Shown here: positions 59,117-62,201 of the stretch, piece after piece | Numbering within the stretch: the stretch's first letter is position 1 | Layout: every line of letters starts with the position of its first letter | Origin: Escherichia coli | Lineage (GTDB): Bacteria > Pseudomonadota > Gammaproteobacteria > Enterobacterales > Enterobacteriaceae | Length of the DNA stretch: 64,000 bases | Reading direction: 5' to 3' (one strand) | Assembly (NCBI RefSeq): GCF_003991155.1 | Contig: NZ_CP031295.1 | The notes under the pieces: generated by a model | Told to the model about the DNA's origin: nothing | The model's database searches: none | The model's input: the letters and a program-made list of their open reading frames with translations, nothing else | Position numbers and translations under genes: made by a program

Positions 59117-59161
59117 AGAGCCGATAAAATGAGATTGTATTAATCTCATTTTATCGGCTCT
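59117..59161. repeat. Perfect 20-bp inverted repeat with 5-nt loop at the IS256-remnant/tet(M) junction
   Basis: AGAGCCGATAAAATGAGATT-GTATT-AATCTCATTTTATCGGCTCT. Confidence 0.85.
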
Positions 59162-59436
59162 GCGTCTTTGCGTCTGGCTCTGTAATCACAGTTACTTTGA
59201 ACTGCTTTATTTCAATTAAATTTTCTTGTCTGCATTTCGGACAATAGAGGGGGAATTTTTTTAATTCAGTATCTTCCCTTATCTTTAATCGTGTTTTATT
59301 TCCACATACAGGACACAATATTCACTTGTAGTTTATAATAACTATCTCCTCCTTTACACTTTAATTCAAATCTTTATTAAAGAATATTTCATCTTATTTA
59401 ACAAGAAACCATATTTATATAACAACATAAAATACA

Positions 59437-61356
59437 CTAAGTTATTTTATTGAACATATATCGTACTTTATCTATCCGACTATTTGGACGACGGGGCTGG
59501 CAAACAGGTTCACCGGTAGTAACATGGTACCCTTTTAACTCTGTTAAACAAACACTACGTCCATTTGTAAAAAAAGTTAAATCATTGCGATAATCTTGAA
59601 TACATCGAGCAGGAATTTCTCCAATAATAATGACCTCATTATTTTTCAGTTGAGTATTTACGATATTTGCACAATATTTGGGAGCATCGTTATATGCCCG
59701 TGAAAGATATTCCTGTGGTGCATAAACTTTAAAACTAAGATATGGCTCTAACAATTCTGTTCCAGCTTTTCTAAAGGCTTGCTCCAGTACAATAGGAGTA
59801 AGCATCCGAAAATCTGCTGGAGTACTAACAGGGCTATAGTATAAACCGTACTTAAAACAGATTTTACAATCCGTCACATTCCAACCATATAATCCTTGTT
59901 CGCAACCATAGCGTATCCCTTCCATAACTGCATTTTGAAATGATTGATTTAAGTATCCAAGAGAAACCGAGCTCTCATACTGCATTCCACTTCCCAACGG
60001 AAGCGGTGATACAGATAAACCAATGGAAGCCCAGAAAGGATTTGGCGGCACTTCGATGTGAATGGTATATTCTGCATTTTTTAACGGTCTCTCCATATAA
60101 ATGACTGTAGGCTCTTTTAGTTCTATCTCCACATGATACTTTTCTTGCAACAGTGCACTAATCACTTCCATTTGTACTTTCCCTAAGAAAGAAAGTATAA
60201 TTTCATGTGTCGTAGAATCCACGTAATATCGTAGAAGCGGATCACTATCTGAGATTTCCAAAAGGGCATCAAGCAACATTTCCCTTTGTTGAGGTTTGCT
60301 CGGTTCAACAGTCGTTTGCAGCAGAGGGAGGGGATTTTCAATTCTCTCTCTCTGTGGCAATAGCTTTGTATCTCCAAGAACACTATTTAACTTCAAAAAC
60401 TCATTCTGCAAAATAACAATTTCCCCGGAATAAGCCTTATCAATTTTACATAATTCACCATTTATTGAAGTATACATTTCTGTAATTTTTATTTTTTCCT
60501 TTTCCGATATTCTAACCGAATCTCGCAAATGCAGTACGCCACTATAAAGACGTATATATGCAAGACGCTGTCTTTTTTCCGAATACTCAATTTTGAAAAC
60601 TTTTCCGCAAAGTTCAGACTGACCTCGATGTGTTGATGAATAAAATTTATTCGTAATCACTTCTATAAGGTTATCAATCCCTATATTGTTTTTTGCACTT
60701 CCGTGATAAACAGGGAACAGGGAACAATTATGAAATCTTATGCTTTCCTCTTGTTCGAGTTCTAATGCTTCCAATAATTTCCCAGACGTATATTTCTCCA
60801 AAAGGTAATCATTTCCTTCTATTACCATATCCCATTGTTCAGATTCGGTAAAGTTCATTACACGCATATTAGGATGCAGTTCTACCTTCTGTTTGATTAC
60901 AATTTCCGCAGAAAGTTTCTCTTTAATATCCTGATAAACCGTTGATAAATCAATTCCATTTTGGTCAATCTTATTGATAAAAAAGATTGTGGGAATACCT
61001 ATTTTCCTAAGTGCATGAAACAATATACGAGTTTGTGCTTGTACGCCATCTTTTGCAGAAATCAGTAGAATTGCCCCATCTAATACTGATAATGAACGAT
61101 ATACTTCTGCTAAGAAATCCATATGTCCTGGCGTGTCTATGATGTTCACCTTCGTATTTTCCCACTGAAAAGAGGTTATTCCTGTCTGAATTGTAATTCC
61201 TCTCTGACGTTCTAAAAGCGTATTATCCGTCCTCGTTGTACCTTTGTCCACGCTTCCTAATTCTGTAATCGCTCCACTGTTATATAATAAGCTTTCTGTT
61301 AAGGTAGTTTTTCCTGCATCAACATGAGCTAAAACTCCAATATTAATAATTTTCAT
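59437..61356 (-). CDS. tet(M): Ribosomal protection protein Tet(M)
   Basis: 639 aa from [25 protein letters not shown]...; low-GC segment. Confidence 0.93.
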
Positions 61357-61720
61357 GTGATTTTCCTCCATTCAAAAGCCCAAAAGGGCATAAAAATCCC
61401 AGTGATAAATACTCTTATCACTGGGATTTTTATGCATAACCATAGGCATACAAAGCATACAGATATTCTCCGGATACTTTAGAATCACATGATAAAGGTA
61501 TTCTTAAACTGGGTACAAAAAACTAAGCCCTCCTAAAAAAGGACATCCAATTATTTGTTCCCACTATCAAATTGACAGTTTATTTAAGAATACCTTGCCG
61601 CATATTTATTAACTCCTTTTAAATAGATACTTAAATAATAGCACGTAAGAGCATATTTGTAAAGGAATCTCCAATTTTTTATCAAAGAGAGTACGTGATT
61701 ACAAAATAGCTGTAATAATG
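61357..61720 (-). promoter_or_regulatory. tet(M) upstream leader/attenuator region
   Basis: Hairpin CCCAGTGATAA...TTATCACTGGG with T-tract just upstream of tet(M). Confidence 0.5.
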
Positions 61721-61732
61721 TACCAATATTTG

Positions 61733-62201
61733 TTATTCTATAATCTTCCAATTACTCCCGTTCTTTTCAAGTACCAAATCAAATTGAGATACCTGCGTTG
61801 CTTTGGTCTGCTGGTCGATATACTCCACTGTCAGCGATACCGTGACTTGATTATCCTTACGATTGTAAATAGGATTTACCAGTTCTTGAAAGATGTACTC
61901 TTTTCCGATTGGTTTTAATATCCCGTCATTCACATAGTAGGAAAGTTCACTGGCTGTCGCTGTAGGATAGAGCTTGAAGAACGTCGTTAAAAACTCATTG
62001 ATTTCATTGGTTGTAATGGAATCAACCGTACCCTCACTTTCAATAGCTTTTGGTTTATAGTCTGATTTCTTTGGTATGCTAGTAATGGTCGGATTCTTAA
62101 TGAGGACCATATTTCCAGTACTGTCTACATAGACACTCACTATATAAGCAGAGTGGACGGTCTTTGTATTTTCCCCCTCTGTAATGAGTTGGTCTACACT
62201 G
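61733..62201 (-). pseudogene. Tn916 orf13-like gene fragment truncated by IS26
   Basis: ORF N-terminus (MNKTKGCLIANFA) is encoded by the IS26 end; position upstream of tet(M) as in Tn916. Confidence 0.4.

Follow-up and report, generated by a model that had tools for sequence, protein, structure and literature searches.

The window analysed here is a stretch of 64,000 nucleotides of Escherichia coli contig NZ_CP031295.1 (assembly GCF_003991155.1), in which the ribosomal protection gene tet(M) lies on a fragment of the conjugative transposon Tn916 (59117-62201) with a perfect 20-bp palindrome at its left edge. Very probably, this fragment is the tet(M) end of a known unit of the Tn6942/Tn7124 type, bounded by copies of the insertion sequence (IS) IS26, in which Tn916 DNA, joined illegitimately at its left end and bounded by IS26 at its right, has replaced the gene sul3. 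As a structure it is ordinary and already described, a known module which is widely spread.

The left joint could be placed to the base. In a BLAST comparison of positions 58880-59440 with the plasmids of PLSDB, the matches split at 59116: hundreds of Enterobacteriaceae plasmids matched 58880-59116 alone, and Gram-positive plasmids matched 59116-59440 alone. A three-way alignment of the window with the sul3 integron of Klebsiella pneumoniae CP027162 (the sul3 parent) and with the Enterococcus faecium plasmid pAA622-2 showed that the window is identical to the sul3 flank up to and including 59116, and to Tn916 from that position on. The A found there is the sole base common to both parents (a 1-bp microhomology), which are otherwise dissimilar at this point, and neither the sequence nor the list of open reading frames (ORFs) showed an insertion sequence or ISCR element adjoining the joint. 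Because only one base is shared and no insertion sequence is present, the joint at 59116/59117 is a direct DNA-DNA junction, produced by illegitimate, non-homologous recombination. No hairpin was found at the sul3 partner site by an inverted-repeat search.

The window is 100% identical to CP027162 over 54880-59116. The order in CP027162 is aadA2, cmlA1, aadA1, qacL, an IS256-family remnant, a hypothetical ORF and sul3, with an IS26 further on; at the joint position this parent passes from agatcca into gacctaag and continues towards sul3, whose stop codon follows after 78 more bases. The IS256-family remnant goes by the name of IS440 in publications on sul3 and appears as 'IS406 tnp' in PMC11539080. 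The initial annotation had this remnant meeting the first base of the palindrome. The position was correct, apart from the one ambiguous A, while the partner was not: the coding sequence of the remnant ends at 58890, and the DNA at the joint is, according to the alignment, the 3' flank of sul3. What is left of this flank (about 58905-59116, + strand, start approximate) is a low-GC piece of 212 bp, contiguous with IS440 and sul3 in CP027162, which may represent the 3' end of a gene for an outer-membrane beta-barrel protein; the OMP_b-brl_2 match, to the C-terminus of the domain, is weak and below cutoff (E 5e-4). The GC content falls from about 51-54% to about 36% near 58905, and 58905-59116 is for this reason not IS sequence. 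In PLSDB the piece was attached to the IS440 remnant in 893 of the 916 matching plasmids, and a distant search for independent copies of an IS440-type IS found none, leaving the boundary between IS440 and the flank approximate (58890-58912). The low-GC block, previously taken to start at 59117, has the contents ascribed to it; judged by its base composition, it begins near 58905 and combines two unrelated origins.

The ORF list also contains a chimeric frame of 76 aa (58913-59143, + strand; RefSeq hypothetical protein WP_136655701.1), in which the beta-barrel-like frame enters the left arm and the loop of the palindrome: SSKDP is followed across the joint by RADKMRLY and a stop codon, compared with ...SSKDPDLSQVRQ... 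in the sul3 parent. By its reading frame, this predicted ORF exists solely through the joint. WP_136655701.1 is carried by many plasmids and corresponds to the 'hp' on published maps of Tn7124.

On the Tn916 side, the repeat finder confirmed the perfect palindrome that had been described as a 45-bp hairpin (59117-59161): two arms of 20 nt (59117-59136 and 59142-59161), 100% complementary and separated by a 5-nt loop. It is the longest tight inverted repeat among those listed by the repeat tool for the 64-kb window, where the arm sequence was found once (0 extra copies, with a chance expectation of 0). RNA structure prediction, proposed earlier as a check, gave a stable fold on both strands (z about -9 versus shuffled sequences): -30.5 kcal/mol for the strand that is sense for tet(M), and -31.0 kcal/mol for its complement. 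The right arm overlaps the stop codon and the final codons of the Tn916 gene orf6.

Three plasmids, E. faecium pAA622-2, a Neisseria gonorrhoeae tetM plasmid and a Salmonella IncC plasmid, have the same 45 bp between the 3' end of orf6 and the stop codon of orf9, which encodes a helix-turn-helix regulator. A scan for exact arms in one genome per species returned 14 loci in 14 genera, including Megasphaera, Streptococcus, Lactococcus, Enterococcus, Parvimonas and a Bifidobacteriaceae isolate, and the orf9 flank was native in all 14. Since the identical sequence with orf9 on its far side is present in plasmids of several genera and in 14/14 genomes, the palindrome is native Tn916 DNA located between the convergent genes orf9 and orf6, and was not made by the joining. 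The alignment of every Tn916-type reference to the window begins exactly at 59117. Literally, then, the palindrome is the site of joining, as had been proposed, with Tn916 homology ending at its foot; of its two flanks, the one towards tet(M) aligns contiguously with Tn916 and the other does not.

The Tn916 fragment itself extends from this foot to 62201, with all genes on the - strand. Next to the palindrome, orf6 (59151-59318) encodes a Cys-rich KTR protein of 55 aa (PF14205, 103 bits; WP_000336323.1). It is followed by tet(M) (59437-61356), whose product of 639 aa passes the curated cutoff of NF012155 (1495.1 bits versus 1420, covering 1-639 of 639). This allele is a mosaic with 95-98% identity to the reference elements; AMRFinder reports 98.12% identity for it in identical plasmids. 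Upstream of tet(M), the leader region (61372-61576) comprises the orf12 leader peptide (61372-61488; NF011335), the attenuator and the leader RNA. The attenuator has a 21-bp stem (61388-61435), downstream of which come a small GC hairpin and a U run, and folds at -48.6 kcal/mol (z -7.95). The leader RNA at 61412-61576 matches Rfam family RF02864 with 194.9 bits against a gathering score of 123; by this match, the 'sRNA' family RF02864 (Enterococcus sRNA 30) corresponds to the Tn916 tet(M) leader/attenuator transcript. The last gene is a 3' fragment of orf13 of the TcpC family (61733-62201; PF12642 positions 73-230 of 231), representing the C-terminal part of about 155 of 310 aa (full length taken from a complete reference copy) and cut by IS26. 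The matches to NF012155, RF02864 and PF12642 and the IS26 from 62202 bear out the earlier description of an IS26-bounded, Tn916-derived tet(M) segment with attenuator and orf13 fragment.

The order orf13, orf12 leader/attenuator, tet(M), orf6 and palindrome is colinear with the Tn916/Tn1545 family at 95-100% identity to the references; between the 3' half of orf13 and the outer foot of the palindrome the identity is 95-98%, and in the palindrome 100%. Unlike the conjugative transposons Tn916 and Tn1545, the window holds only a 3.1-kb internal piece, without orf9, the regulation module, int/xis, the element ends and the conjugation genes. Homology is confined to 59117-62201, orf13 is present only in part, and the flanks are a sul3-integron remnant and IS26. 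From its gene content, the fragment is unable to act as a Tn916.

At the right boundary, the homology to Enterococcus plasmids ends at 62201 and IS26 begins at 62202. This copy (62202-63021, - strand, 820 bp, with tnp at 62254-62958) was recognised by its terminal repeats and NF033587. It has no 8-bp target duplication, and since its 8-bp flanks differ (CTACACTG versus ATTTTACT), it does not represent a simple insertion. Its outer end is abutted by the 3' fragment of an IS3-family transposase gene (63022-63506, + strand; profile positions 223-369 of 369).

At its far side, the unit is bounded by a second IS26 (46796-47614, + strand, ORF at 46849-47562), which is inverted relative to the copy at 62202 and has the terminal repeats GGCACTGTTGCAAA at 46796 (+) and 47614 (-). 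The unit thus delimited (46796-63021) measures 16,226 bp and comprises, in order, IS26, the tnpA and tnpR genes of a Tn3-family transposon, intI1, the gene cassettes, the IS440 remnant, the sul3-flank remnant, the Tn916 fragment and IS26. The Tn3-family genes tnpA (48057-51008; NF033527, 1314 bits) and tnpR, encoding a serine recombinase (51011-51571; resolvase-type matches), are both located on the - strand, and matching plasmids annotate the transposon as TnAs3 family. The class 1 integron integrase gene intI1 (52250-53263, - strand) is complete (NF011946, 797 bits, 1-337 of 337). The cassette array on the + strand (53408-58011), assigned by NCBIfam matches, consists of dfrA12 (53408-53905), orfF (54017-54307), aadA2 (54313-55104), cmlA1 (55366-56625), aadA1 (56718-57509) and qacL (57679-58011). 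The IS440 remnant (58258-58890, - strand) is truncated at both ends (NF033543 39-244 of 338; Transposase_mut 78-283 of 379).

This arrangement corresponds to the class 1 integron of sul3 type, attributed to Antunes et al. 2007 as cited in PMC6206278, with the classical array intI1-dfrA12-orfF-aadA2-cmlA1-aadA1-qacH-IS440-sul3 (PMC6206278). In the window, intI1, the cassettes dfrA12-orfF-aadA2-cmlA1-aadA1-qacH/L and IS440 are all present, with 100% identity to the sul3 module from aadA2 through IS440 and 212 bp beyond. Unlike the sul3-type integron, the window lacks sul3, orf1 and the truncated mef(B): homology to the sul3 module ends at 59116, 78 bp short of the sul3 stop codon, and Tn916 DNA comes next.

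With respect to published relatives, Tn6942 was described in Salmonella Enteritidis pS13-3 with a length of 16,493 bp, and PCR evidence was given for its movement as a unit through a circular intermediate (PMC8193513). A Tn6942-like element and Tn7124 were described in E. coli pTA7 and pTA2, respectively, with the map 'IS26-ctp-lp-tet(M)-hp-IS406tnp-...-intI1' (PMC11539080). The window shares with Tn6942/Tn7124 the order IS26, orf13 (truncated conjugal transfer protein), leader peptide, tet(M), hypothetical protein, IS256-family tnp, aadA1, cmlA1, aadA2, dfrA12, intI1, Tn3-family transposon and IS26. The assignment to this type of composite is based on gene order and on the two IS26 copies at 46796-47614 and 62202-63021; the likeness to Tn6942 is judged by published gene order, the two lengths being about 270 bp apart. 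These papers (PMC8193513, PMC11539080) do not mention the palindrome, nor do they say that a sul3 flank supplied the DNA separating tet(M) from the IS256-family remnant. Their annotation can be refined on three points: the 'hp' between tet(M) and the remnant is a chimeric ORF created by the joint, the sul3-flank remnant shows that tet(M) displaced sul3 in a sul3-type integron, and the hairpin is native Tn916 sequence.

A 200-bp probe centred on the joint had complete matches in 164 plasmids of PLSDB; among 5,426 complete E. coli genomes, 122 contained it in full. Copies of the 16.2-kb unit that are full-length and 100% identical occur in at least 25 plasmids, from E. coli, Shigella and Salmonella, and at least 80% of the unit is covered in 68 records. 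Because the joint is identical everywhere, these copies point to a single ancestral event that would have been followed by spread. In E. coli, Salmonella and Shigella of pig, poultry, wastewater and human origin, this module is a common vehicle of tet(M).

The hairpin had also been considered as a terminator carried in from the donor. The donor origin holds, but the label of terminator is doubtful. The stem is stable (-30 kcal/mol) but is not followed by a U run on either strand, the tails being UUGGAUCU in the window, UUCCGUUA in native Tn916 and GCGUCUUU on the other strand, and a consensus terminator scan flagged the hairpin neither in the window nor in native Tn916 nor in a homologue next to tet(S). 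In the published model of Tn916 regulation, transcription of tet(M) must read through into antisense orf9 (PMC7288454). As the U run is missing, the scanner is silent and the published model needs read-through, the hairpin would be at best a leaky terminator or a stabiliser of 3' ends.

The tet(S) homologue belongs to the tet(S)-orf6 module of plasmids pKL0018 (2750-2800) and pSI01, where, as read from the sequence, an imperfect hairpin is followed by the U-rich tail UUUUUCUUUUCU. A further relative was observed in Enterococcus aquimarinus (NZ_JXKD01000002.1, 2434-2478), with both 20-nt arms 100% identical to those of Tn916 within flanks of about 83-85% identity and with the 5-nt loop inverted (AATAC versus GTATT). 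Its locus is a diverged Tn916-like regulatory module with an orf7-like sigma factor gene, a full orf9, the palindrome and an orf6-like KTR gene, and an ORF of 200 aa occupies the position of tet(M). The conservation of the arms suggests either strong constraint or conversion within the palindrome accompanied by flipping of the loop. Together, the classical terminator tail of the tet(S) homologue and the conserved arms in E. aquimarinus point to a putative functional constraint on the hairpin. The tail of the tet(S) homologue would also fit a descent of the hairpin from a terminator.

For the origin of the structure, the replacement of sul3 by a Tn916 fragment probably occurred on a proteobacterial plasmid with the IS440-sul3 module already in place, where about 2.9 kb between the break and an IS26, containing sul3, orf1 and the truncated mef(B), would have been replaced. 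That the break fell at the foot of the hairpin would be a coincidence, perhaps helped by the keeping of an intact hairpin between two convergent units, the cassette array and tet(M)-orf6. The most likely function of the hairpin in Tn916 is that of a leaky terminator poor in U, which marks the 3' ends of the transcripts of the convergent genes orf6 and orf9 or stabilises them; in the window, it probably continues to reduce read-through between tet(M) and the integron. Several points weigh against this explanation. A random break within 1 base of the foot of the strongest hairpin of the region has a chance of about 1% or less over a few hundred bases, for a feature that was picked afterwards. 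No intermediate structure was found, and both the host and whether IS26 or the illegitimate joint came first are inferred. As for the proposed role of the hairpin, the features of a terminator are lacking (no U run on either strand, no scanner hit), and tet(M) transcription passes the hairpin in the published Tn916 model.

The foremost alternative, although unlikely, is that the hairpin set the breakpoint, either by exonuclease trimming of a single-stranded or broken Tn916 end down to the 20-bp stem or by a polymerase or template switch at its foot, with joining through the 1-bp microhomology. Palindrome-associated illegitimate recombination is an established phenomenon, and if the hairpin did steer the break, the joint would be one more case of it. 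The joint and the foot of the perfect hairpin (-30 kcal/mol) are indeed only 0-1 bp apart, the single shared base fits end-joining or a template switch, and in the tet(S) plasmids pKL0018 and pSI01 the homology between tet(S) modules and Tn916/tet(M) likewise starts 2-3 bp outside the same foot. It is, however, a single event; the foot is not a junction in any of the 14 genomes or of the other plasmid contexts that were inspected, a hairpin is missing from the sul3 partner site, and the left flank of tet(S) travels with tet(S) in several contexts, so that it was rejected as a fresh junction and reflects an old divergence.

The other endpoints of tet(M) fragments are scattered as well. At least 11 other distinct downstream endpoints were found in a spread sample of PLSDB, none of them at the foot; counted from the first base of the palindrome, they include one 88 bp outside, one 39 bp inside, where an IS10-like element is inserted, and at least seven more sites about 150-264 bp inside. 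No second independent junction at the foot was found in this sample or in the 14 species-representative genomes. A more general role of the conserved 20-bp palindrome as a physical stop, with its foot as a preferred boundary when Gram-negative plasmids capture Tn916 fragments, is unlikely. Candidates for further junctions were rejected on different grounds: matches in Salmonella Uganda IncC and N. gonorrhoeae keep native orf9 sequence, variants in K. pneumoniae and E. coli (99.7% identity) belong to the same lineage with the same IS440 context, and the 14 genome matches are all in native context.

Less probable again is a random break of which only the products with an intact hairpin spread, the hairpin insulating tet(M)-orf6 from the convergent Pc-driven cassettes and the IS440 remnant. 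It is situated exactly between the cassettes (+) and tet(M)-orf6 (-), and the arms, fully conserved in the diverged E. aquimarinus element despite flanks of lower identity, suggest functional constraint. Selection of this kind nevertheless leaves unexplained why not one extra base of orf9 was kept, and many successful tet(M) fragments of Enterobacteriaceae do without the hairpin (endpoints at query positions 453-567).

Recognition of the hairpin by a site-specific system, be it an integron integrase acting on an attC-like folded site or a transposase or rolling-circle element for which it would serve as an end, is very improbable. IntI1 acts on folded single-stranded hairpins, and the class 1 integron at whose 3' end the fragment is located has an intact intI1. 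The hairpin was nonetheless rejected as an attC site: it is a perfect palindrome without bulges or extrahelical bases, its arms begin with AGAGCCG and end with CGGCTCT and contain no GTTRRRY/RYYYAAC core sites, and the crossover has no GTT. At its other end the fragment has the IS26 boundary instead of a recombination site, and no insertion sequence or ISCR abuts the joint. Nor does the hairpin represent the Tn916 single-strand origin sso916, since it is located between orf6 and orf9, and sso916 lies between orf19 and ardA (orf18), downstream of orf19 (PMC9154091, PMC9632896). Finally, a palindrome produced by the joining itself, by fold-back synthesis or hairpin-end resolution for example, as the initial annotation had allowed, has only the coincidence of position in its favour and is refuted by the same 45 bp between orf9 and orf6 in the three plasmids and 14/14 genomes, in native Tn916-family elements of many genera.

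Other IS-bounded tet(M) fragments include Tn6539 in E. coli (PMC6340991), a composite in Vibrio parahaemolyticus and an insert in a Salmonella Uganda IncC plasmid. Like the window, these carry truncated Tn916 pieces with the leader peptide and tet(M), mobilised by IS elements. Unlike the window, Tn6539 joins Tn1000 DNA downstream, the Vibrio composite has an IS10-like element in the right arm, and the Uganda insert keeps 88 bp of orf9. Judged by these ends, all are truncations that arose independently.

In V. parahaemolyticus pVb2289-tet (2980-3010, corresponding to window position 59156), an IS4-family element resembling IS10/ISVsa5 is inserted inside the right arm of the palindrome, making another composite around tet(M). 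The insertion target GGCTCTGCG resembles the consensus target of IS10, by which the insertion would be driven by its target and not by the hairpin, and the break at 59156 was set aside as a candidate for a hairpin-driven event. The Salmonella Uganda IncC plasmid (NZ_CP051426.1) carries its independent tet(M) fragment between two complete copies of intI1, flanked by direct repeats of about 87 bp (TAAATAAGACCGTCCCGTAAATTTCAGCCGAATCCGAC...) at 2763-2846 and 5353-5439.

Outside the tet(M) end, the window contains four copies of IS26 in all (26807-27626, 37621-38440, 46796-47614 and 62202-63021), of which the third measures 819 bp between its terminal repeats and the other three 820 bp. An identical near-palindrome (GCCGCCACGCCGGCG / CGCCGGCGTGCAGGC) occurs at 42239-42260 and at 46523-46544, 4.3 kb apart, which suggests that two full or partial copies of one element may flank the intervening genes.

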